Assembly (NCBI GenBank): GCA_009873635.1
Contig: WAHY01000005.1
Coordinates: 97,564 to 123,260 of the forward strand
Reading direction: 5' to 3'
Length of the DNA: 25,697 bases
DNA from: Nitrospinota bacterium
GTDB lineage: Bacteria; Nitrospinota; Nitrospinia; Nitrospinales; VA-1
The notes below the pieces were generated by a model. That model was given only the letters and a program-made list of their open reading frames with translations. It did not search any database and was not told the DNA's origin. A program made the translations under genes and the position numbers. The number at the start of each line of letters is the position of its first letter. Within the stretch, counting starts at the first letter, position 1. This document shows positions 1 to 25,697 of this stretch, in pieces.

Positions 1-2737
1 GTTTCAAAGAACCTAGTTTTTTTGAAATCTCAGAGTTTAACCGAGTGACTTCTTTAAGATCCTGGTTGAGACGGTTGCCGATGTCTTCTCTTTGATTCCT
101 GGTGCTTCGCATGCTTCCCTGCCAACGAAATATTTCGGGGTATGTATTTTTAAATAGAACATTGAACTCATTCAAATCGTTTAGTTCGGCTAACTCGTTC
201 AGTGTTTCATACTTTTCCTTTATCATGGGCAGGCTTTCTTTGAATTTCTGAAACCCGCGTGTCCTGAGACTATCTTGTTCTGTAATAGATTGGGATAACT
301 GCTTGCGTGCATCATTGAGGGCTTTAAAGTTTTCGCCTAAATCTTCACTCAGGCTGGAATCGATAGTTTTTTGGCTCAAAGATTTTATCTTTTGCCTGAC
401 TTTTGTTTCTTCCTGCAAAAGCTCTCTCATTTTTATCATGGCTTTGTGTTCATCCAGGTATTTTGAATCTTTATCTAACAAATCCTGTATAGCGGCAACA
501 TCTTTAATCAGTTCATCAAAGAAACTTTTGATCGAAAATTCAAATTGCCTGGCTTGATCGGCACGTAGTTTTTGGTTTATTTCTGAGGTATTTTCGATAA
601 CTTGTTTTTGCTTTTTTTCCAATGACTCAAGTTTGGTTATAGATTCATCAATTTGCTCCATGACCTGGTTGTCTACTAATGAATCCATAGAGGAGCTAGC
701 CTGGTCTAACTGGTTTGAAAGTTCTCTCAGATCTTCAGCAACCTTTTTGAGTTGTTCCAGCGCTTCATCAATTTTTCCCTGATTAGCAAGGTCCTTGATT
801 TTTTCCAACGAAGCCATAGTATCTTCCAGGTTCATGCTCTTGTAGGATTTAGAGTTGAGAAACTCATCCGGTGTTGTCTGGTTCTGTCGGGAGAGTTTAT
901 CCATCATCTTCTGCAAGGTTTGCTGAATCTTGCTCAGCTTGGAATTGAGTTGATTGGAAGTGAGAGGTGATTTTTTATCACGAATATTTTCAAACTCTTC
1001 CCGCAGGGCTTCGGTTAATTGGGAAAGCTGGTCCTCAAGATCCATGACCTGTTCCATTTTCTGCCGGTTGGTCATTTTAATCAGATATAAAATATCCTGC
1101 TCCAGATGAGCGACCATTCTGTTATTAAGAACCGCAACTGAACCCGCATTGAAACCGGCAGGTGTTGGTTTTAAGATCGTGCCCTGTATTTTGTTAATGG
1201 TATTTATCTGATCTTCACGGATGGCTGTCAAACCTTTGATGATACTTGTTAAAAGCGTGAGGTAGGGGCGTGGGAAGTTGTCAAAGTCTTTAGCCTGGTC
1301 CCTTATACGCTGGGCAAGACCGATGATATCTATCAGTGCGTCTGAATGTGAAGAGAGAAGTTTTTTCCCAGAAAGCGGGTCGGTTGTCGTGGTTTTAAGA
1401 ATTTCTCCTTCAACAAGGCCGTTTGCCAGCAGGGCAATCATCTTTTCTGATAACTCTTCCTGGAGACGCACAAGGTTTTCCTGCTCTTTTCTACTATCAA
1501 AAATAACGAAACTATAAATTTCTGACTGGCCTGAGTTGGGACCGGTGACATTATCGTTATCTTTGACTTCCAGGAAGTATTGAACTTCATCACCAGGGTG
1601 CAAACTTTCCAGGGACAGGTTCCAGGAAAAGCTTCCCGTTGAATCCTTTTCCGGTTGTTTGAAGCGTTTAATGCTTTTCGTCAATGTGTCATTGTTGATT
1701 TGGGCGATCAGATCAATTTTGCTGATTCCAAAATCATCGTGGGATTCATAATACATCTGCACAGTGTCGGTTTCATAATAGACAGGTTTGGGGTTGGATG
1801 GAAACAGAATCACCTGGGGTGATTTATCCTGATCAAGCTCAATGGAATGTTTCTCTTTCAAAAGAACTTTTTCGCCATTGGGAGAAGTTATCCTGAATTG
1901 ATAATGTCCTTTTTCCCGCACCATGAAAGACCCTTTCAATTTTTTCAATTCCGTTACATCCATCAGAAAGTGGTCGCGGTTGTTCACTACTAATTCTGCT
2001 TCTTTTATTGGCAGGTTACTGTTACCGGTTATTTGTACTTCGGTGCCAGGGAGAGCTTTGAGTGGGCCTTTGGCCAAAATTTCTCTTTTCAGACTTGTGT
2101 ATGAAGGATATTCCAACTTTAGCATCAGGTCGCTTATATGATAATCGGTTTGTTGGTTTGTTAATTGCGGGGCTTTTTTATTTTCTTTCGGGGTAACCTG
2201 AGCCAACTTTTGCGGATCTGATAAAACCTTGAAGTCGGGCAATAATGCTGTGGCCAGGATTAAGGCAACAAGGGTAACCAGAAAAAGGTTGCGCGCTGGA
2301 ACAGCCCTTTGGCCACTGACTACTGATTCCGGGTCGATGTTCTGAATTTCAGATTGAGTGCGTTGGAGCTGCTCTCGAATGAAAGATAGAGAAAAGGTTT
2401 TATCTTGTGAGCTGGTCAAATGACGTTCCAATTGAACGGCATTGATCAGTGAATTATTCAATTCAGGATATTTTGCTTCAGTCAGGAGGGCGGCACGATC
2501 TTTGTCTATTCTGGATAGCCTGCAGGAAGAGTATAGTCCCAAGCCCAGTAATATTATGATTAGTCCGCACCAACCGTATTTCAAAAATGGGGATTGAAAA
2601 AAAGAAAATAGTCCGCTTATAAGAACATAACCGGCGATAATGGTAAATATGGAATAGGTGGCCTGAATGAATAGGACCCTGTTCCATTTAATCTTAACCC
2701 GGTTGAGAAAGTGGTGGATTTTTGAAGAGGTTTCCAT
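1..2737 (-). CDS. Large membrane-anchored coiled-coil protein, 3'-truncated by the window edge (>=912 aa in window). Architecture resembles the DUF4175 family (identification tentative).
   Basis: Manual translation of the minus strand from ATG (complement of 2735-2737) gives METSSKIHHFLNRVKIKWNRVLFIQATYSIFTIIAGYVLISGLFSFFQSPFLKYGWCGLIIILLGLGLYSS... This is two N-terminal hydrophobic helices followed by >800 aa of E/K/Q/L-rich, heptad-like sequence (e.g. ...LEKIKDLANQGKIDEALEQLKKVAEDLRELSNQLDQ...). I checked the frame at three points (around 2737-2460, 1202-1260 and 2-118) and found it consistent with no stop codon, so the ORF runs off position 1. It is absent from the ORF track because it is incomplete, and no competing long ORF exists on either strand. 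The family assignment is from memory of the architecture only. Confidence 0.6.
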   Translation of the reverse strand, partial: METSSKIHHFLNRVKIKWNRVLFIQATYSIFTIIAGYVLISGLFSFFQSPFLKYGWCGLIIILLGLGLYSSCRLSRIDKDRAALLTEAKYPELNNSLINAVQLERHLTSSQDKTFSLSFIREQLQRTQSEIQNIDPESVVSGQRAVPARNLFLVTLVALILATALLPDFKVLSDPQKLAQVTPKENKKAPQLTNQQTDYHISDLMLKLEYPSYTSLKREILAKGPLKALPGTEVQITGNSNLPIKEAELVVNNRDHFLMDVTELKKLKGSFMVREKGHYQFRITSPNGEKVLLKEKHSIELDQDKSPQVILFPSNPKPVYYETDTVQMYYESHDDFGISKIDLIAQINNDTLTKSIKRFKQPEKDSTGSFSWNLSLESLHPGDEVQYFLEVKDNDNVTGPNSGQSEIYSFVIFDSRKEQENLVRLQEELSEKMIALLANGLVEGEILKTTTTDPLSGKKLLSSHSDALIDIIGLAQRIRDQAKDFDNFPRPYLTLLTSIIKGLTAIREDQINTINKIQGTILKPTPAGFNAGSVAVLNNRMVAHLEQDILYLIKMTNRQKMEQVMDLEDQLSQLTEALREEFENIRDKKSPLTSNQLNSKLSKIQQTLQKMMDKLSRQNQTTPDEFLNSKSYKSMNLEDTMASLEKIKDLANQGKIDEALEQLKKVAEDLRELSNQLDQASSSMDSLVDNQVMEQIDESITKLESLEKKQKQVIENTSEINQKLRADQARQFEFSIKSFFDELIKDVAAIQDLLDKDSKYLDEHKAMIKMRELLQEETKVRQKIKSLSQKTIDSSLSEDLGENFKALNDARKQLSQSITEQDSLRTRGFQKFKESLPMIKEKYETLNELAELNDLNEFNVLFKNTYPEIFRWQGSMRSTRNQREDIGNRLNQDLKEVTRLNSEISKKLGSLK

Positions 2738-2841
2738 AAGCGCTGGTAATAATTCTTTGCTCTTCTAGTTTATTACAGCCCTGTTACGAATCCCAATGAA
2801 TAAAGTGGGCTGAAGTCAATGCGGCTTAAAACCGTATTTTA

Positions 2842-15582: not shown

Positions 15583-17091
15583 GTGAATTTACGAGCCGAT
15601 GAAATCAGTTCCTTGATTCAAAAGCAGATTGAAGGCTTTGAAGAAGGGATCGAGCTCAAGGAAACCGGACGGGTGATTTCTGTGGGCGACGGAATCGCGC
15701 GTATTTATGGTCTTGGAGAAGCCATGTCGGGTGAACTTCTGGAATTTCCCGGTGGTTTGGCGGGTATGGTCCTCAACCTTGAGGAAGACAATGTCGGAGC
15801 GGTTTTGCTCGGGCGTGATGAAGATATTAAGGAAGGAGATGAGGTAAAGCGAACCGGCCGTATCATGGAAGTTCCTATTGGCCCTGAGCTGGTTGGGCGG
15901 GTTGTGGATGGCTTGGGACAGCCTATTGACGGGAAAGGACCTGTTAAAACCGAAAAGTTTGGACCGATTGAAAGGGTTGCACCCGGTGTTATTGACAGGA
16001 AATCGGTTCATGAACCTATGCAAACAGGTATTAAAGCTATCGATGGCATGATTCCTGTTGGCAGGGGACAACGGGAATTGATCATTGGTGACCGCCAGAC
16101 AGGCAAAACCGCCGTTGCCATTGATACCATTATCAATCAAAAAGGTCAGAACATGTTCTGCATCTATGTGGCGGTGGGGCAGAAACGCTCTACGGTTGCA
16201 CGGGTGGTGAAATCATTGGAACAACATGGTGCGATGGAATATACCATTGTGGTTTCCGCATCAGCCAGTGACCCGGCTCCCATGCAGTTTATCGCTCCGT
16301 ATGCAGGATGTGCCATGGGTGAGTATTTCCGGGATAACGGGCAACACTGCCTGATTGTTTATGATGATCTTAGTAAGCAGGCAGCCGCTTACAGACAATT
16401 ATCGCTTTTATTAAGACGACCTCCGGGACGTGAAGCTTATCCCGGTGATGTATTCTTTCTGCACTCCAGATTGCTGGAGCGGTCCGCAAAAGTCAGTGAT
16501 GAACTGGGTGCCGGGTCCATGACCGCCTTGCCGATTATTGAGACTCAGGCGGGTGACGTATCTGCGTACATTCCGACCAACGTAATTTCCATTACAGATG
16601 GTCAGATTTTCCTGGAAACAGACCTATTTTATTCTGGCGTGCGTCCCGCTATCAACGTTGGTTTGTCAGTCTCTCGTGTTGGTGGCGCGGCACAAATCAA
16701 GGGAATGAAGCAGGTTGCAGGTCAGCTGCGTCTTGATCTTGCGCAGTACCGTGAAATGGCCGCCTTCGCACAGTTTGGAAGTGACTTGGATGCAGCGACA
16801 CAGGCACAACTTAACCGTGGTGAACGACTGGTGGAATTGCTCAAGCAGGATCAATATAAACCCTTGAGCGCAGTTCAACAGATCGTTTCCATATTCTCGG
16901 GTGTTCGTGGGCTGATCGATGATATTCCTGTCGCTGATGTCAAAAAGTTCGAAAATGGTCTTCTCAACTTTATGGAAGACAAGCATCAGGCGCTTTTGAA
17001 TAAAATTGAAGAAGCCAAGAAACTTGATGATGACTCAGAGGCACAGTTAAAAGCAGCTATTGAGGAATTCAAGGGACTTTTTAAAAGTTAA
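15583..17091 (+). CDS. atpA: F-type ATP synthase alpha subunit
   Basis: The 502-aa ORF has the Walker A motif GDRQTGKT. The GTG start at 15583 immediately abuts the atpH stop at 15580-15582. It is highly collinear with bacterial AtpA. Confidence 0.95.
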
Positions 17092-17094
17092 TCA

Positions 17095-19818
<2,724 letters not shown>

Positions 19819-19862: not shown

Positions 19863-19940
19863 TTATAGCTTCTTAAAGATCAGAATACCTCATTAAAAAT
19901 CTTTATCTTTATGTATTTTATTTTAATAAAGTTTAGTTGG
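19863..19940. repeat. Copy A of a ~78-nt AT-rich imperfect direct repeat (partner at 24783-24861)
   Basis: Copy A reads ttatagcttcttaaagatcagaatacctcattaaaaatctttatctttatgtattttattttaataaagtttagttgg. Copy B reads ttatagtttcttaatgatcatcatatctcattaaaaaatctttatctgtatgtattttatttttataagattttaatgg. Identity is about 83% overall. The core ctcattaaaaa(a)tctttatct[t/g]tatgtattttatttt is about 38 nt with 1 mismatch and 1 indel. Copy A lies in the convergent gap between atpC and the KamA-like gene, and its last 8 nt overlap the 3' end of the KamA-like CDS. Confidence 0.8.
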
Positions 19941-22194
19941 GTGAATCAGGTTCTAAATTTGTGAACTTCGAAGTGGCTTTGAATTGATATTCAGGATATT
20001 CATATACTGGCATTCGAGGTTCTGTTCTCCCAATAGAATACCCCCAAATACTAGTGTATTCTGAGACATCTTCACCCATTTCTTCAAGATTCTTTAGGTA
20101 TTCACTAATAGATTTGGATTCAATGATAATCACTTTCCCCATTTTATTGATAATGGGGCTGTGTAGTCTATTTGCGTCATGCTCGAATTCCAAAATTCGC
20201 CGGCCATAACGCGTAATTCCAATGACTCTAAATGATAAGCTTTTTCCTATGCCTGGTAAATTGAGGATATTCCGGTCGGTAGATAGAAACGGCAAATTAG
20301 CCGAGCACCTTAACTTCTCTATATTCTTCACCATATTTTCAGCTTCAAGTGAAAATTGGTGGATTTTTGATTTAGTTTTTTCAGGGAGCAGACCAAAAAC
20401 CTTTTCTTCCATTTGTTCTTGAACAGCCCGCGCATTGGTGGCAAAGTTATGTTGGTTCTCCATATATCCTTTTGTGGAAAAAGTGTAGTATCCAAGCACT
20501 CCGATTTTATTCAAGATTTTTCTGAGTTTGGCAGTATGGCCTCTTCGTGAAGATGCCGTGGTCAATACATGTTGGTTGGTTAAAGTCCATCCCGCGGAAA
20601 TAAGTTTTCTGATTCCTTCCCGGGCTTCAGGGGTTACTTCCATCGGGCATTCAAAATGAGTTTGTACGAAGAATTGTGTGATACCGATTTTGGATGCCTT
20701 GGATTTGAATTCGGCCAGAATTTTGACAAGTTTATTGGTGATTCGTTGAGGAATATAGACCGGAAGGCGCGTTCCCAGCCTGACCCGAACGATCTCGGCA
20801 TATTTGTCGCCCTCATTCCTTGATTTATTTGCCTCTTTTTTCCGGGTGGCCATTTGATAAATAGCCTCCAATACCTCATGAAGAGACTTATCCGAACTCA
20901 TCAAGGCATCACCGCCGGTAATTAAAATATCCCGAAGCTGTGAATCGTTTTCAAAATAATCCATCAGACACTTCAGTTTTTCAGGCCAGGTTTTCTTAGG
21001 TTGAAGTTTATTCAAATCAAAATTAAGACGACCACTTTGAAAATCGTACATTCTTTGACAGGATTGGCATAAACCCCCACAGGCTCTGCCTACAGTATCC
21101 GGGATCAAAATAGCGACTTCGGGGTAACGCCTATGAACGTTGTTGTGTGTGGGCAATAACCAACCGGCCGCGTTAGGTTTTCCAGGTTCAACTTTGTCTT
21201 CTTTCTCCCAAGCCACGATATTGCCGAATTCTTCGACAAGTTGTTTGCTATAAATTACATAATCCCTAATGGCCAAATCCGCTCCAATGGCAAAGTATGG
21301 GGCCTTGATATGGAGTAAAGATAAGTAGTAAGGGTTTACAAAAAATGGTACCCCCGCGTTTTTTGCGCTTTTTAAAATTTGCATTGTGTCCGGGTCGAGC
21401 GAGTATCCAAGCATTTCATTCAACAGGCCGGGAGAACGTATGGCAAAGTTGAGATGAAAATGGCTGTCATTCCACCATTTCATTGCGGTTGAATATTTCT
21501 CTTCTGGTGACAGACCTGGTTCAAACTTGAAACTTCTACTGGAAATTTCGCCATTTTCCATTTTGGCAATTATAATTTTAAGTATTCGCTCCTTATTTTC
21601 TTCCCTCAATTGGACGATTCGAGAATCAAGGCCGGAAGGCCATCGATCCATCCACTTCTCAATCATGTTTCTGGTTGGAGGTTGATGAGCCATTTCTCCC
21701 CTCAGTTGCCTGAATAAATAAATCATGTCTTCAAAAAAATAAGGTTTAGCTCCTCCGATCCCATGTCTCGCTGCCAGCCAAACCATCTTGATGGGGTTAT
21801 TGATAGCAATTTCACCTCTTAAATTTAAGTCTTCAAATTCCCTTCCCGCGTTATTGATATAGTCCAGTAACCTTATTGATGCATAATCCGGCCATTTGAT
21901 AGACTCGAACGTTTTTCTATCAACATATTCCTTTTTATAAAAATCTAGTGCTTCAGGGTTTTCTTCAAGAACTCCCATGATCCAGTTTCTAACTTCCTCA
22001 AGCGCTTCAATTTCATTTTTTGTTTTTTTCATTATTTTATCTAAATCGGGATTTTCCTGAAGGAGTTGTTTGAGCAGGTTATGTGATTTGGGATCTATGG
22101 AGATTTTATCCAACTCTTGGTTGCTTGGAGAGATATCATCACATCTTTTCATAGAAATGGTGGTCGTTTGCAACATGGTTTTCCTCGTTTTCAT
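19933..22194 (-). CDS. KamA-family (lysine/amino-acid 2,3-aminomutase-like) radical-SAM protein, unusually large, with about 225 aa of extra N-terminal and about 130 aa of extra C-terminal sequence
   Basis: The 753-aa ORF has a central region that matches hallmark KamA blocks. VPFFVNPYYLSLL corresponds to ITPYYLSLI of clostridial LAM. HRRYPEVAILIPDTVGRACGGLCQSCQRM corresponds to [26 protein letters not shown] and contains the CX3CX2C motif. LRDILITGGDAL corresponds to VRDVLLSGGDAL. The N-terminal ~225 aa and C-terminal ~130 aa match nothing I recognise. The first ATG has no SD. The second Met (residue 7) is preceded by aggaaa, so the true start may be 22176. Confidence 0.8.
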   Translation of the reverse strand: MKTRKTMLQTTTISMKRCDDISPSNQELDKISIDPKSHNLLKQLLQENPDLDKIMKKTKNEIEALEEVRNWIMGVLEENPEALDFYKKEYVDRKTFESIKWPDYASIRLLDYINNAGREFEDLNLRGEIAINNPIKMVWLAARHGIGGAKPYFFEDMIYLFRQLRGEMAHQPPTRNMIEKWMDRWPSGLDSRIVQLREENKERILKIIIAKMENGEISSRSFKFEPGLSPEEKYSTAMKWWNDSHFHLNFAIRSPGLLNEMLGYSLDPDTMQILKSAKNAGVPFFVNPYYLSLLHIKAPYFAIGADLAIRDYVIYSKQLVEEFGNIVAWEKEDKVEPGKPNAAGWLLPTHNNVHRRYPEVAILIPDTVGRACGGLCQSCQRMYDFQSGRLNFDLNKLQPKKTWPEKLKCLMDYFENDSQLRDILITGGDALMSSDKSLHEVLEAIYQMATRKKEANKSRNEGDKYAEIVRVRLGTRLPVYIPQRITNKLVKILAEFKSKASKIGITQFFVQTHFECPMEVTPEAREGIRKLISAGWTLTNQHVLTTASSRRGHTAKLRKILNKIGVLGYYTFSTKGYMENQHNFATNARAVQEQMEEKVFGLLPEKTKSKIHQFSLEAENMVKNIEKLRCSANLPFLSTDRNILNLPGIGKSLSFRVIGITRYGRRILEFEHDANRLHSPIINKMGKVIIIESKSISEYLKNLEEMGEDVSEYTSIWGYSIGRTEPRMPVYEYPEYQFKATSKFTNLEPDSPN

Positions 22195-22503
22195 TTTTAC
22201 GAGGGAGCATGATAGAAAATACCCGCACCCAATTCATCAGGACTATAAAATCTAATAAATTTAAGTGATCAAGAAAAGCGGATATGTAAAACAGGCTTAT
22301 CTATAAGATTATAAAATTTTCATTTTATTCCCTCTCTATAGATAAATATGACCCTGCTTTTAATTCCAATAGAAAAATAATATTTTGAAATTACTCATCC
22401 TCAAAATAAATATTGGTTTGCAATTAATCTTTTAAAAGCTAAGGATAAAATATGAAGAAGGCCAAACCCCATACGGTGGAGGTATGGAGAAATAAACTTT
22501 AAA

Positions 22504-23718
22504 TCAGGCGGTTTTTTTCATGAGGTGGCTGAAAGAGTGATACAACTTTTGCATCGCCAGCGGTGACAGTACCGTCGTGAATGCGATGACGATGACCATG
22601 CCTGCATAAATCTCGTTGCTGAAGATTCCACTTTCTCTACCCAGTTCGGCGAAGATGAGTCCCACCTCACCGCGGGGGACCATGGCAGTGCCAATGATCC
22701 AGCGGATCGGCAACGATTCCTTAATAAACCAGGGGCCGACCAGTTTGCCGACCACTGCCACGATCAAAAGCACCATGGAAAAGACCCAGATGAAAGGAGA
22801 ACTCCAGTCGATCTCGCGCAGGTTTAAGGATATTCCCACAATAACAAAGAAAATCGGCGTGAACAGGTGGATAATGGATTTCATTTCTGTTTCTATGCGC
22901 TCGGCGAAATTAGGGTCTGCATGCAATGCAACACCAAAAGGCAGAAAGAAACGACGGGATAGAGCCAGTCCTGCTGCGAAACCTCCGAGCAACTCCGGTG
23001 CGCCCATAAAGTGAGCCAGCCAGGCGAAGAGTAGGACCAGAGAAACGATGGTTGTGGGAATCAATCCAGGAATTTCGGTGGTCTTGTTGACATGCTTGAT
23101 GACAGAGGACATTAGCTTGGCCGCCATGGGAGCCAGAAAAAAGAAAACCCCCACGAACGATATGACCTTTCCAGTATTGACCAGGGTTACTCCTCCACCA
23201 ATGGAAAACTCGTATAGCAATGCTAGCAGAATGACACCCATCACATCATCCAGAATAGAGGCCCCCAGTATTATCTGGCCTTCATGGGAGTGATGGCGTT
23301 TGAGATCTGTGAGCACCCGGGCGGTGATCCCAATGCTTGTCGCTGTGAGGGTCCCTCCGATAAACAGAGATTCCAGTAATTCGAGATTGAATATCCAATA
23401 TCCTAAGCTGAACCCGAGCAAAAGCGGCACAGCAAATCCACCCAGGGCTACGATTAACGATTTGCGACTCGACCGCGCCAGTTGGTGGAAGTCGCTTCCC
23501 AATCCCACTTCGAATAAAAGCAGGATGATGCCGATCTCAGCCATGAGCCGAATTGCATCAATGGGTTCGACCCAGTCCAGCAGGCTTGGTCCCAGGGCCA
23601 CTCCTGCTAGTAACTCCCCGATGACTGCGGGTCCTTTACACCTGACGGTCAACTCAGCAAAGACGCGTGCCGTCAGAAGGATGGTCAGGAGGATAAGAAA
23701 AAAGTCGTGGACATGCAT
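22504..23718 (-). CDS. Cation:proton antiporter, CPA2 family membrane domain (NapA/KefB-like, no KTN domain)
   Basis: The 404-aa polytopic membrane protein begins ...LILLTILLTARVFAELTVRCKGPAVIGELLAGVALGPSLLDWV...IRLMAEIGIILLLFEVGLG..., which parallels the N-terminus of KefC/KefB and NapA transporters. Confidence 0.8.
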   Translation of the reverse strand: MHVHDFFLILLTILLTARVFAELTVRCKGPAVIGELLAGVALGPSLLDWVEPIDAIRLMAEIGIILLLFEVGLGSDFHQLARSSRKSLIVALGGFAVPLLLGFSLGYWIFNLELLESLFIGGTLTATSIGITARVLTDLKRHHSHEGQIILGASILDDVMGVILLALLYEFSIGGGVTLVNTGKVISFVGVFFFLAPMAAKLMSSVIKHVNKTTEIPGLIPTTIVSLVLLFAWLAHFMGAPELLGGFAAGLALSRRFFLPFGVALHADPNFAERIETEMKSIIHLFTPIFFVIVGISLNLREIDWSSPFIWVFSMVLLIVAVVGKLVGPWFIKESLPIRWIIGTAMVPRGEVGLIFAELGRESGIFSNEIYAGMVIVIAFTTVLSPLAMQKLYHSFSHLMKKTA

Positions 23719-24035
23719 GGATGCTCCGAAATTATTTAAATCGCTACGTTGTAAGACAAGATTATTGTTGAAATTATTTCATAATAATACTCTTTCTTTC
23801 CGCTCAACAGATAAAGCTAAGAACCTAAGAGACTTATAGTCGCCATTTAAGCTCTAGCAAACTTTCTTGAACGTAAGACCCAGCTTTATGAGAAAGTGCT
23901 ACTGTTAGACGCATCGGGCGATACGTCAGGAAGTAGGGAATAATTATTTTTAAATAATATCTTATATAAAGAAGACAAAAATCATCTGTTTGAATATAAC
24001 GTTTTTTTAAAGTTTTTTGTTTAAGGAGGTTTTTT

Positions 24036-24440
24036 ATGAATAGTATTTATGAGCACATGAGTTCGCCTGTCTTATTTATAGGTTCAGAATTAAAGGCGAA
24101 GGATGGAATTGCAAAAATGATTAAAAATAATATTTCTTCCTTACTAGTAAAAAAAAATGGGAAGTATGTCGGTATATTAACAAAAACAGACTGGGTTGAT
24201 ATGGTTATTAAAGAGGTATGTGACCCAAATACAGTGAAGGTGTCGGAAACAATGGTCAATCCAATTATTAAAATTGATATGAATGAAACAATGGCGAAAG
24301 CAAGTAGTCTATTTGAAGAACGTTATATACGTCATTTGGCAGTCACTAGAAACGATGAGATTGTTGGAATATTGTCAGTAAAGGACTTAGAAAAATACTA
24401 TTGTCAACTACACGACAAAGTTGGTATTGCCCATTATTAG
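24036..24440 (+). CDS. CBS-pair domain protein
   Basis: The 134-aa ORF has a strong SD aaggagg. Two CBS-like units are recognisable (...IAKMIKNNISSLLVKKNGKYVGILTKTDWV... and ...ASSLFEERYIRHLAVTRNDEIVGILSVKDL...). It has very AT-rich codon usage, unlike the core genes. Confidence 0.65.
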   Translation: MNSIYEHMSSPVLFIGSELKAKDGIAKMIKNNISSLLVKKNGKYVGILTKTDWVDMVIKEVCDPNTVKVSETMVNPIIKIDMNETMAKASSLFEERYIRHLAVTRNDEIVGILSVKDLEKYYCQLHDKVGIAHY

Positions 24441-24464
24441 GTTTAAGAAATTTAGAGGTGTTTT

Positions 24465-24718
24465 ATGAGTTTTCGATTAATAGGTAAAAATATTGAACTA
24501 ACAGATGGGATAAGAAACCACTTAATTAATAAAATAAGCAAAGTCATGAAAAATACGAAACCAGGTGCTAACTTGCGTTTATCCATTTGTCTACTGAAAA
24601 ATCGCCATATAGTCACGCTATTTTGAAGCAAAATAGAGTGACTATGTTTGCAGTAGATGAGGCTAAAGGCTTTTATACATCTGCGGATAATGTTCTAAAA
24701 AAATTTGAGAAAAATTAA
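24465..24718 (+). pseudogene. hpf: Short ribosome hibernation promoting factor (hpf/yfiA family), interrupted by a frameshift
   Basis: Frame A (24465-24626, stop TGA) encodes MSFRLIGKNIELTDGIRNHLINKISKVMKNTKPGAN..., which matches the HPF N-terminus (compare M.LNI.G.N.EIT.A.R..V..K..KLE). A frame shifted by one nucleotide (open 24572-24718) encodes ...IHLSTEKSPYSHAILKQNRVTMFAVDEAKGFYTSADNVLKKFEKN*, which matches the HPF/YfiA C-terminal half (..VVLKVEK.THTSDATLHV.GGEIHASAEG.DMYAAID.LIDKLARQ). The frames must switch between about 24560 and 24585. An SD agaggtg precedes the start. Confidence 0.7.
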
Positions 24719-24782
24719 AAAACACAAAGCACGTGCTCAAAATATCAAAAGACAATTGCCCAAAAAAATTCAACACTCCTCA

Positions 24783-24861
24783 TTATAGTTTCTTAATGAT
24801 CATCATATCTCATTAAAAAATCTTTATCTGTATGTATTTTATTTTTATAAGATTTTAATGG
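24783..24861. repeat. Copy B of the ~78-nt AT-rich imperfect direct repeat (partner at 19863-19940)
   Basis: See copy A for the alignment. Copy B lies about 65 nt downstream of the hpf-remnant stop, in the convergent gap before the 25159-25620 minus-strand gene. Confidence 0.8.
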
Positions 24862-25158
24862 AAACCCGCCGATCCGAATTTCTATATATTGGCAAGGATG
24901 ATAGTTAAGAAACCGAATGCTCTGTTAGCAATTTAATGCATAGAGTTTTACAGCGGACTTCCTTTAAAATATTAAATAATGTCAGATACTATTTACAGAA
25001 ATTTGTTTGTCGTAGGCTTCTATATGATCATTTAAATATTTAGCAATACCTCCCCGCAATAAGACCATGCATATTGAATGTCAATTGTTTGATATTTTCC
25101 CCGCTTTATTAAATAGTAAGTAGCGAGCTGATTACGTTTGATAGAACTACTGAAAAAA

Positions 25159-25620
25159 TTATTTTGAATTAGGACAACAATCTTCTTGGCAATTAGGGTG
25201 TGGATGATTACCGTTTAGTTCTTTGCTACCATTTGATAAGGAAAAAAAAATAAAAAACAAGTTATAAAACATAATCATTATTGAAACAGCAGTAAGACCT
25301 GAAAATAAAATAAATAAAATTGTATCTCTATAACCCGCTAAAGAAGTACCCACCAAACCTAATAAACCTAAATTATGTAAATAGAAATGGAGTTTGACGC
25401 CATTTGGCCATGGTATTTGACGAGATGCAAAACGGGGAAGCACATGATATGAAACGCCTGCAATCATCATGACCATAAAGCCTAATAAGTTTATGTGTAT
25501 ATGAGCAAAACTAAATTGAGTTTTAATAACTGGGTTAAAACTTATCCCTACACCAAAAGAAACACCGATTATCAAATAAACGAGTGAAGTTTTAATAAAT
25601 AGTTTTGGGTATTGATCCAA
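25159..25620 (-). CDS. Small (153 aa) 4-TM membrane protein with a His/Cys-rich C-terminal tail and a possible heme-copper-oxidase-like helix motif
   Basis: A TTG start is preceded by an aaaggag SD at optimal spacing. There are four hydrophobic helices. The segment FAHIHINLLGFMVMMIAGVSYHVLPRF resembles helix VI of cbb3/NOR-type heme-copper oxidase subunit I (...[23 protein letters not shown]...). The C-terminal tail NGNHPHPNCQEDCCPNSK is rich in His and Cys. It lies in the AT-rich region. Confidence 0.55.
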   Translation of the reverse strand: MDQYPKLFIKTSLVYLIIGVSFGVGISFNPVIKTQFSFAHIHINLLGFMVMMIAGVSYHVLPRFASRQIPWPNGVKLHFYLHNLGLLGLVGTSLAGYRDTILFILFSGLTAVSIMIMFYNLFFIFFSLSNGSKELNGNHPHPNCQEDCCPNSK

Positions 25621-25697
25621 AAGCTACTCCTTTGGTTAATAGTTAACGTAGCTTTGATTTATAATAGTGGCAAATATATTCTTATGAATTAACCTTT

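Follow-up and report, generated by a model that had tools for sequence, protein, structure and literature searches.

Genes and features of the AT-rich right end

The window, a stretch of 25,697 nt, belongs to a marine Nitrospinaceae MAG. Its right end (23720-25697) has a GC content of 0.311, compared with 0.440 ± 0.019 (minimum 0.395) in core windows of equal length (1,977 nt), giving z ~ -6.8 against a background of the 22 kb of core sequence inside the window. On the same background GC was reduced at all three codon positions. The CBS-pair gene (CBS134) had a GC3 of 0.30 and a GC1 of 0.41, the hpf pieces a GC3 of 0.25-0.28, and memb153, which encodes a small membrane protein, a GC3 of 0.22 and a GC1 of 0.39. 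The core genes (n = 22) ranged from 0.40 to 0.52 in GC3 and from 0.46 to 0.63 in GC1, the sole exception being atpC (GC3 0.29). A preliminary description of this DNA had reported an AT-rich right end, atypical codon usage and a mixed content of a CBS pair, an hpf remnant and a small His/Cys-rich membrane protein. All three observations were confirmed (31% GC vs 44.0 ± 1.9% in core stretches of the same length; GC3 0.22-0.30 vs 0.40-0.52).

The GC gap is large (0.13). A large gap at all codon positions is a classical signal of horizontal gene transfer, and it was counted against a resident origin. The GC-normalised dinucleotide signature of the full patch (delta* 97) was also outside the core null (44 ± 13) and was counted in the same way. 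The multicopper oxidase gene described below is clearly native and deviated as much (delta* 102). The CPA2 gene to the left of the patch was an outlier on the high side (GC 0.51, GC3 0.60). The patch proposed at 23720-25697 is real but its bounds had to be redrawn. The first ~97 nt (23719-23815) are the conserved upstream region of the adjacent CPA2 gene, and at the other side the low-GC block runs ~4 kb past the window end.

The CBS-pair protein is encoded on the plus strand at 24036-24440 and is an intact, stand-alone protein of 134 aa. It matched the Pfam CBS family (PF00571) in two stretches with an E value of 2.2e-19 and 69.9 bits (cutoff 24), confirming two tandem CBS motifs. Its dN/dS of 0.26-0.37 indicates purifying selection. 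A homolog search returned only seven clusters, of which the single taxon-labelled one was Nitrospinae and the others were unlabelled. Orthologs with 63-70% identity adjoin the memb153 and omp genes in L098 and L110. The AT-rich region upstream of the gene (23816-24035, plus strand) includes a 41-nt stretch (23934-23974) that L098 and L099 have conserved ahead of their CBS ortholog. By blastn these 41 nt were 80% identical to L098 1717-1757, within the memb153-CBS spacer and on the CBS strand. Promoter-like sites were at shuffle expectation in the promoter scan, and the terminator scan of the patch gave no terminator-like site.

An hpf pseudogene of the short-type ribosome hibernation factor (HPF/YfiA paralog) follows on the plus strand at 24465-24788. 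The gene had been described as broken, and a full S30AE domain was indeed obtained only after joining three reading frames. The joined reading of 110 aa, which needs two frame corrections, matched positions 3-87 of the 88 in PF02482 with 33 bits (cutoff 23.7) and positions 1-98 of the 102 in TIGR00741. The single-frame ORF (53 aa) reached 17.4 bits, below the 23.7 cutoff. An intact ortholog in L109/L110 (65% identity) places both lesions: an Ala codon near 24610 has lost 1 nt, and a poly-A tract near 24710-24717 has changed in length. Among the strain contigs every indel sits in the hpf poly-A tracts. The gene was inactivated by the 1-nt deletion together with poly-A slippage. The reconstructed reading resembles known HPF/YfiA proteins in spanning the whole S30AE domain, but the window copy is a pseudogene while sister lineages carry intact orthologs of 124-133 aa. 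The window hpf would be an extra copy embedded in an accessory module. Independent inactivation of hpf has occurred at least twice.

The hpf pseudogene and memb153 are convergent and are separated by an AT-rich spacer with no recognisable feature (24789-25158, 370 nt). The preliminary description had put 440 nt of noncoding DNA here (24719-25158); the AT-rich spacer stands, at a length of ~370 nt, with the hpf remnant reaching 24788. Apart from the hpf tail, the spacer gave no match to related loci by tblastx or blastn. The Rfam scan of 22150-25697 gave no match at E <= 1, and a search of 21900-25697 for repeats gave nothing but short chance matches rich in A/T. One imperfect inverted repeat of 17 nt (24788-24804/24897-24913) had a fold z of only -2.25 and was not conserved. 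Strain SNP density in the spacer was 0.5-1.8%.

The block beyond the window and in related lineages

Overlapping contigs showed that the low-GC block continues ~4 kb beyond the window end, for a total of ~6.0 kb. Contigs L002-L008 were 99.5-100% identical to the window and extend beyond its end (L004 was used for the extension). Gene arrangement was identical in contigs from eight different samples. The block encodes the CBS-pair protein, the hpf pseudogene, memb153, an OMP-like ORF (omp299), a broken IS481, a rubrerythrin-like protein (rubr159) and an ECF sigma factor (sigma192). Its right border is a giant MnxG-like multicopper oxidase (MCO), 1,654 aa in L089, which matched the MnxG model NF041487. 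The last 77 nt of the window (25621-25697) are omp299-memb153 intergenic DNA. The omp299 gene starts 82 nt past the window end as the AT-rich block continues. The segment in the window probably makes up the left third of an AT-rich accessory neighbourhood of ~6 kb, which is flanked by a KamA-family radical-SAM gene on one side and the MnxG-like multicopper oxidase on the other.

The broken IS481 is inserted between the rubrerythrin and omp genes just outside the window. Its transposase, assigned to the family by NCBIfam, is present as pieces of 104 and 142 aa covering model positions 2-91 and 147-283 (intact ~284 aa), and no terminal inverted repeats were found, which marks it as a remnant. 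It is the only mobility gene of the block, in which no integrase was found. Neither the window nor five related loci contained a tRNA. The longest direct repeat bordering the ~6-kb block was 11 nt, which is at chance level (shuffle mean 9.7, maximum 13). Regions 2 and 4 are both present in the ECF-type sigma70 factor.

Many other Nitrospinaceae lineages (L089-L092, L098, L105-L111, L114-L122, L126, L134 and L154) carry the same genes next to the same MCO and KamA genes, with orthologs at 49-89% identity and dS of 0.6-2.3. Gene order varied. It was MCO, sigma192, rubr159, omp, memb153 in L089, L090 and L091, where the flanks are 86-89% identical, and omp-memb153-CBS in L098. It was HPF-CBS-omp-memb153 in L109 and L110, and KamA-HPF-memb153-rubr-sigma-MCO in L114-L122. 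Orthologs in the closest clade had a GC content of 0.30-0.39 compared with 0.46-0.47 for the MCO, making them as AT-rich as the window genes. Orthologs were equally AT-rich in L110, L111 and L098. GC in the window sigma, rubr and memb153 genes was 0.03-0.05 below that of the L089/L091 orthologs despite equal flank GC, an observation that was counted against residence. The coding genes compared had dN/dS of 0.06-0.37, indicating purifying selection, with the module above the comparison genes (0.15-0.37 against 0.03-0.13). Module proteins were 64-76% identical to those of L091, compared with 86-89% for flank proteins. Replacement through recombination with another Nitrospinaceae lineage could be another cause of this low identity.

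To the left of the patch lies a CPA2-family cation:proton antiporter cassette (22452-23815, minus strand; CDS 22504-23718, 404 aa), which includes conserved DNA of its own on both sides of the gene. The protein matched Pfam Na_H_Exchanger (E 1.5e-65) and its best matches were in Nitrospinota (83-92%). In all four relatives the orthologs were GC-rich relative to their surroundings, and the neighbourhood of the gene differed in each. Similarity to L100 extends beyond the gene, over 44 nt on the downstream side (91%) and 97 nt on the upstream side (73%). CPA2 was considered as the truly foreign element and was rejected as such, its best homologs being in Nitrospinota and its orthologs GC-rich in every relative. 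CPA2 is native to Nitrospinota, and only its position is lineage-specific, through relocation to this site in the lineage of the window.

A frame-broken relic of a memb153 gene (~71 nt, codons 42-63) was found on the minus strand at 22199-22267, 5 nt upstream of the KamA start codon. It covers the invariant H-x-N-L-L-G-F-M...Y-H-V-L-P-R core of memb153. By blastn it was 73-76% identical, in the expected orientation, to the interior of the memb153 ortholog in L089, L091, L098 and L110. Its local scores were 32-34, compared with 21 ± 2.5 (maximum 30) over 300 shuffles. An intact memb153 lies directly upstream of KamA in L091, L092 and L105, and L091 and L105 have no CPA2 between the two genes. 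The relic is the scar of an ancestral memb153-then-KamA junction. In the lineage of the window memb153 and KamA are now separated by the CBS-hpf pair and the self-contained CPA2 cassette, with the relic left behind. The atpC/KamA junction was absent from every relative with sufficient flank. A genome scan anchored on KamA gave mainly Bacteroidota and other phyla (63-68%) and only four Nitrospinota loci, none of which had an atp operon beside KamA.

memb153 and the possible function of the module

The memb153 gene (25159-25620, minus strand) is the last gene of the omp299-memb153 unit and encodes a membrane protein of 153 aa with four predicted helices. The C-terminal tail is rich in His and Cys (HPHPNCQEDCCP). 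No differences were found over 462 nt in seven strain contigs, and dN/dS was 0.24-0.29. Scores against oxidase families were low, with an E value of 5e-7 and 29.3 bits for Pfam COX1 (PF00115; cutoff 34.8) and 19.4 bits for the CcoN model TIGR00780 (cutoff 583). The family profile searched against the PDB by hmmsearch matched the cbb3 oxidase subunit CcoN (9g6b_A, E 1.4e-6; 3mk7_A, E 4.8e-6; 8smr_E, E 4.8e-5). Profile positions 8-97 aligned to CcoN 309-403, a significant similarity in the region of helices IX-XI. A fold search of the memb153 model (pLDDT 66) against the PDB was not significant, with yeast Cox1 ranking 2-3 at E > 1.

By these profile matches memb153 is homologous to the C-terminal helices of CcoN, and by the cutoffs it is not a member of the COX1 family. 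The ~90 aligned residues include the H-x-H pair of helix X of CcoN (PDB 3mk7, 9g6b), followed by a Y-H...P motif. The two histidines of the pair are the axial ligands of hemes b3 and b in 3mk7. H40, H42 and H59 are invariant in the memb153 family. Unlike CcoN, memb153 has only four predicted helices compared with 12 or more. It also lacks the CuB histidines and the first heme-b ligand and therefore cannot be an oxidase. It differs from COX1 and DUF2871 in falling below both Pfam cutoffs and in its Cys-rich tail, or in the DUF1858 domains of homologs.

The family had 113 metagenome matches on contigs of 32-66% GC, and memb153 GC tracked local GC. The few homologs with a taxon label were all Nitrospinae and the remainder were unlabelled metagenome sequences. 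The global database search behind these taxon labels covered CBS, memb153 and CPA2. A more distant clade has a GC-rich memb153 (0.48), which shows that low GC is no inherent property of the family. This value was also counted against a resident reading of the low GC.

A sigma gene directly followed by a memb153 homolog on the same strand was seen in L156 and L175 only. In the clade of the window the sigma and memb153 genes point in divergent directions and are two to three genes apart. The block resembles ECF sigma/anti-sigma modules in that an ECF sigma factor is encoded beside small membrane and redox proteins, and the order in L156 and L175 resembles that of sigma/anti-sigma pairs. In contrast to such modules, no anti-sigma Pfam domain (zf-HC2, RskA) was recognised in memb153 or its homologs, and the regulatory link is putative. 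memb153 may be a heme- or metal-sensing membrane partner of the sigma factor.

The gene content and adjacency suggest that the module would be an ECF-sigma-controlled envelope, oxidative-stress or metal-stress unit tied to the multicopper oxidase. The sigma-partner role is likewise read from gene content and adjacency. In Lucker et al. (2013, PMC3578206) the MnxG-like enzyme of N. gracilis is proposed as a periplasmic defence against ROS. The block shares with that locus the giant MnxG-like multicopper oxidase, here at its right border, but the N. gracilis gene is placed there in an nxr/cytochrome bd-like cluster (PMC3578206). It is conceivable, though rather unlikely, that the memb153 family represents undescribed free-standing four-helix descendants of subunit I that act with ECF sigma factors as heme/metal redox sensors, controlling a rubrerythrin/outer-membrane/multicopper-oxidase defence in marine nitrite oxidisers. 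The family is consistently found with an ECF sigma factor, a rubrerythrin-like protein and an MnxG-like oxidase, and offers a concrete candidate for work on how the main marine nitrite oxidisers sense stress.

Origin of the low-GC block

The block is likely an old accessory cluster specific to marine nitrite-oxidising Nitrospinaceae, largely ordinary, long inherited in the clade, reshuffled and partly decayed. Its low GC would result from long-term AT-biased mutation of weakly constrained genes, which are assumed to be conditionally expressed, and not from un-ameliorated foreign DNA. The preliminary description had proposed a recently acquired or decaying accessory patch. Accessory status and decay were borne out by the hpf pseudogene, the broken IS481, the ~71-nt relic and the variable content. 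Recent acquisition was not supported, the same genes lying in the same neighbourhood of diverged lineages with orthologs that share the low GC. The expectation that the CBS and membrane-protein homologs would come from a distant taxon also failed, as all taxon-labelled ones were Nitrospinae. A native segment had been expected to combine GC within normal variance with the same genes in the same place in all relatives. The genes are in the same place in many relatives, but GC is outside the variance estimated from the 22 kb of core sequence in the window.

Ancient acquisition, in which the module entered the ancestor of the clade from an AT-rich donor and kept a foreign-like composition, has a small probability. 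The compositional offset persists in several lineages, the patch-wide dinucleotide signature is outside the core null and the memb153 and CBS subfamilies are very narrowly distributed. The normal to high GC of distant-clade memb153 would also place the origin of low GC on one branch. However, no donor or outgroup homolog is known, and at dS > 0.6 any foreign signature should have been lost by amelioration. The dinucleotide deviation of the native multicopper oxidase is just as large, and the memb153 family follows local GC as expected of resident genes.

Slightly less probable is exchange within the family, in which the module or parts of it were replaced by homologous recombination from a lower-GC Nitrospinaceae lineage and are foreign at the species level only. 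Besides the lower identity of module proteins to L091, omp is 84-86% identical to L110 and 84-88% to L091 while the MCO is 79% against 89%. The GC of the window module is nearer to L110 than to L091, and lineages have reshuffled the order and orientation of the genes. However, the higher dN/dS of the module accounts for its lower identity and no transfer is needed. Apart from the dead IS481, neither mobility genes nor recombination breakpoints were identified, and the identities pointed to no consistent donor, memb153 being closer to L091 (69%) than to L110 (60%).

Recent transfer from a distant low-GC taxon followed by decay is highly improbable and largely refuted: the GC of 0.31 vs 0.44 with atypical GC1 and GC3, the broken hpf, nearby IS481 remnant and low gene density, and the atpC/KamA junction not seen in relatives would fit it, but diverged Nitrospinaceae (dS 0.6-2.3) carry orthologs in the same neighbourhood, those of L110, L111 and L098 are equally AT-rich, no taxon-labelled memb153 or CBS homolog was found outside Nitrospinae, purifying selection acts on the genes, neither tRNA nor integrase nor direct repeat was found, and contigs of eight different samples share one arrangement.

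The block resembles a classical genomic island in its sharp GC drop of ~0.13, atypical codon usage, accessory or stress-type genes, lineage-variable content, IS remnant and pseudogene. It differs from one in lacking tRNA or direct-repeat borders and an integrase, in its presence at the same locus in diverged relatives, in a low GC common to orthologs and in taxon-labelled homologs confined, as far as found, to the host phylum. A 13-point GC drop with odd codons, a pseudogene and an IS remnant can thus mimic textbook recent transfer, and comparison with related contigs pointed instead to a resident, clade-specific, rearrangement-prone neighbourhood with a composition conserved among species. 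Calling islands from composition only would thus overestimate transfer in Nitrospinaceae MAGs. Of secondary interest is that an extra hpf copy has been lost repeatedly and independently. The CPA2 cassette, from promoter to terminator, appears to have moved without a visible mobile element.

Base composition and extent of the low-GC block

The right-end segment (23720-25697) had a GC content of 0.311 compared to 0.440 ± 0.019 (minimum 0.395) in 1977-nt windows drawn from the window's own 22 kb of core sequence, approximately 6.8 SD lower. In the sliding profile GC was approximately 0.41-0.51 across the holB-metG and atp regions and 0.30-0.32 from 23750 to the window end. All codon positions were shifted. 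The CBS-pair gene, the hpf pieces and the gene for a 153-aa membrane protein (memb153) had GC1 of 0.33-0.41 and GC3 of 0.22-0.30, compared to 0.46-0.63 and 0.40-0.52 in core genes. The sole exception was atpC (19411-19818, plus strand), with a GC3 of 0.29, like the patch genes, and a normal GC1 of 0.63. The AT-richness and atypical codon composition reported in the preliminary description were confirmed and are statistically strong. The GC-normalized dinucleotide signature of the segment also deviated (delta* 97-105); the native gene for a giant MnxG-like multicopper oxidase (MCO) was as deviant (102).

The three genes previously named in the segment were all present. The CBS-pair protein (CBS134) is encoded at 24036-24440 (Pfam E 2e-19) and memb153 at 25159-25620 (minus strand); the tail of memb153 is HPHPNCQEDCCP. 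The hpf remnant reaches 24788, so the noncoding spacer described as 440 nt exists but is only approximately 370 nt long. The first 97 nt or so of the segment are the conserved upstream region of the adjacent antiporter gene.

Exact-protein look-ups gave eight independent contigs (ENA, Logan, NCBI GCA_009874485.1) which matched the window at 99.5-100% and extended past its end. In one of these, L004, low GC continued for approximately 4 kb through an OMP-like 299-aa ORF (omp299), an IS481 remnant, a rubrerythrin/ferritin-like protein (rubr159) and an ECF sigma factor (sigma192). GC returned to 0.48 within MCO, which had an MnxG match. The block is therefore approximately 6.0 kb in all and the segment is its left third. 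The IS481-family transposase remnant (L004 4347-5250, approximately 1.5-2.4 kb past the window end) consists of pieces of 104 and 142 aa with host-like GC (0.42-0.45). This copy is defunct and lies between the rubrerythrin and omp genes in this species only. Strain contig L002 starts within it, consistent with an assembly break caused by a repeat. At the opposite end of the window a long ORF of at least 921 aa (1-2766, minus strand) runs off the left end.

Conservation of the neighborhood in related lineages

Three related contigs (L089, L090, L091) carried MCO, sigma192, rubr159, omp and memb153 in the window's order and orientation, without the IS. Identity to the window was 88-89% for MCO and 86% for KamA, the radical-SAM gene to the left of the segment. 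KamA directly followed memb153 in L091, L092 and L105. The arrangement was omp-memb153-CBS in L098 and HPF-CBS-omp-memb153 with MCO close by in L109 and L110. A more distant group (L009, L114-L122) contained KamA, HPF, memb153, rubr, sigma and MCO, differently oriented. The atp junction is specific to the window's lineage: where the flanks were long enough, no other lineage had atp genes next to KamA. dS between these lineages was 0.6-2.3, indicating that the gene association is old. dN/dS of the genes compared was 0.06-0.37 and memb153 showed 0 differences over 462 nt in seven strain contigs, so the genes are not generally decaying.

The closest-clade orthologs are equally AT-rich. GC in L110 was 0.315 for HPF, 0.326 for CBS, 0.361 for omp and 0.329 for memb153 compared to 0.47 for MCO, and ortholog GC in L089, L091 and L111 was 0.33-0.39 compared to 0.46. 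The global homolog search covered CBS and memb153. All taxon-labelled members of the resulting clusters (CBS n = 7, memb153 n = 20) were from Nitrospinae or Nitrospina, the remainder being metagenome sequences without a taxon label.

The region is probably a resident, clade-specific, rearrangement-prone accessory neighborhood of Nitrospinaceae whose low GC is old and shared. Ancient acquisition of the module and exchange within Nitrospinaceae are both less likely. Transfer of either kind would fit the GC of the window's sigma, rubr and memb153 genes, 0.03-0.05 below the L089/L091 orthologs, the lower identity of module proteins (64-76%) than of the flanks (86-89%) and the GC-rich memb153 (0.48) of a distant clade. 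The recent acquisition suggested earlier, taken here as transfer from a distant taxon, is not supported and was rejected on the taxon-labelled homologs of CBS and memb153, the synteny in diverged lineages, ortholog GC, purifying dN/dS and the lack of mobility marks (no tRNA, integrase or bracketing repeat was found). The accompanying description of the patch as accessory and decaying holds in part: the region is accessory, variable and locally decaying. It adds one more example to a kind of genome feature that is already known, and its interest is modest.

The hpf pseudogene and the KamA junction

As previously described, hpf is broken. The complete S30AE domain was recovered only after joining three reading frames (33 bits, profile positions 3-87 of 88). 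Alignment with the intact L109 ortholog (65% identity) puts the first lesion within an Ala codon, where 1 nt is deleted. The second is in a poly-A tract that is of different length in different strain contigs. Orthologs were intact in L109/L110, L112, L114, L122 and L173, and independently broken by in-frame stops and frameshifts in L009, L115, L117, L119 and L120, the stop SFR*LG being common to L009, L115 and L117. The extra hpf copy has thus been lost at least twice.

The CPA2 cation:proton antiporter gene (22504-23718, minus strand; cassette 22452-23815) had a GC of 0.51 and a GC3 of 0.60. Its best homologs were from Nitrospinota (83-92% identity); identity to Gammaproteobacteria and Gallionella proteins was 72-75%. 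Orthologs were GC-rich relative to their surroundings in every relative examined, and high GC characterizes the family and does not mark the gene as foreign. The gene's neighborhood differed in each Nitrospinota relative, and the window and L100 had 97 nt of upstream and 44 nt of downstream sequence in common. These conserved flanks and shifting neighborhoods indicate that CPA2 moved as a self-contained cassette; no mobile element was visible with it.

In L091 and L105, memb153 and KamA are not separated by CPA2. Immediately 5' of the KamA start codon in the window is a 71-nt, frame-broken match to memb153 codons 42-63 (22199-22267). Five memb153 orthologs aligned to it at 73-76% and with the expected strand orientation; local alignment scores were 32-34, compared to 21 ± 2.5 (maximum 30) for shuffles. 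This relic is the scar of the ancestral memb153-then-KamA junction, and shows that local rearrangement put CPA2 and CBS-hpf between memb153 and KamA.

KamA (19933-22194, minus strand) encodes a 753-aa KamA-family radical-SAM protein, approximately twice as long as lysine 2,3-aminomutase. Pfam gave no match for it. The nearest relatives in the genome collection were Nitrospinaceae MAGs. The protein is kept at 63-68% in Bacteroidota, Ignavibacteriota, Gemmatimonadota, Acidobacteriota and others, and its neighbors vary even within Nitrospinaceae.

The memb153 family and putative function

Among the components of the module memb153 stands out most. Its family profile matched CcoN, a cbb3 oxidase subunit, over residues 309-403 (E 1.4e-6 to 4.8e-5). 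H40, H42 and H59 are invariant in the family, and H40 and H42 align with the H-V-H of CcoN helix X, the heme b3 and b ligands in 3mk7. With four helices and all CuB ligands missing, memb153 cannot be an oxidase. Family members of approximately 150 aa have a Cys-rich tail (CQExCCP); homologs of 219-306 aa carry one or two DUF1858 domains instead. A search for the family yielded 113 metagenome matches, with homologs in L089-L184; those few that had a taxon label were from Nitrospinae. The structural model was of moderate confidence only and a fold search with it gave no significant match. By profile comparison, these uncharacterized four-helix proteins are homologous to the helices of CcoN around helix X. 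Of all elements of the region, only this CcoN-derived mini-protein family may be worth more work.

The conserved core comprises the ECF sigma factor, the rubrerythrin-like and OMP-like proteins and memb153, and adjoins the MnxG-like oxidase. In the N. gracilis genome paper (PMC3578206) such an oxidase is proposed as a periplasmic ROS defense. This role and the gene content suggest a sigma-controlled unit that may serve the envelope or act against oxidative or metal stress. The CBS protein and HPF may be additions to this unit, linked to energy state or dormancy. A memb153-like gene directly followed the ECF sigma gene in two more distant contigs, L156 and L175. In both (L156 8933-10918, L175 264-1625) a response-regulator receiver protein, the ECF sigma factor and the memb153-like protein were encoded on one strand with short gaps, an order which suggests a signalling operon. 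No anti-sigma domain was detected in memb153; the L156/L175 layout is compatible with memb153 being a candidate membrane partner of the sigma factor.

Strain contig L002 differed from the window by 1.07% in the atp genes (atpA-atpC, 16263-19818) and by 0-0.3% in KamA, CPA2, CBS and memb153, suggesting that the atp segment is recombined or more variable within the population.
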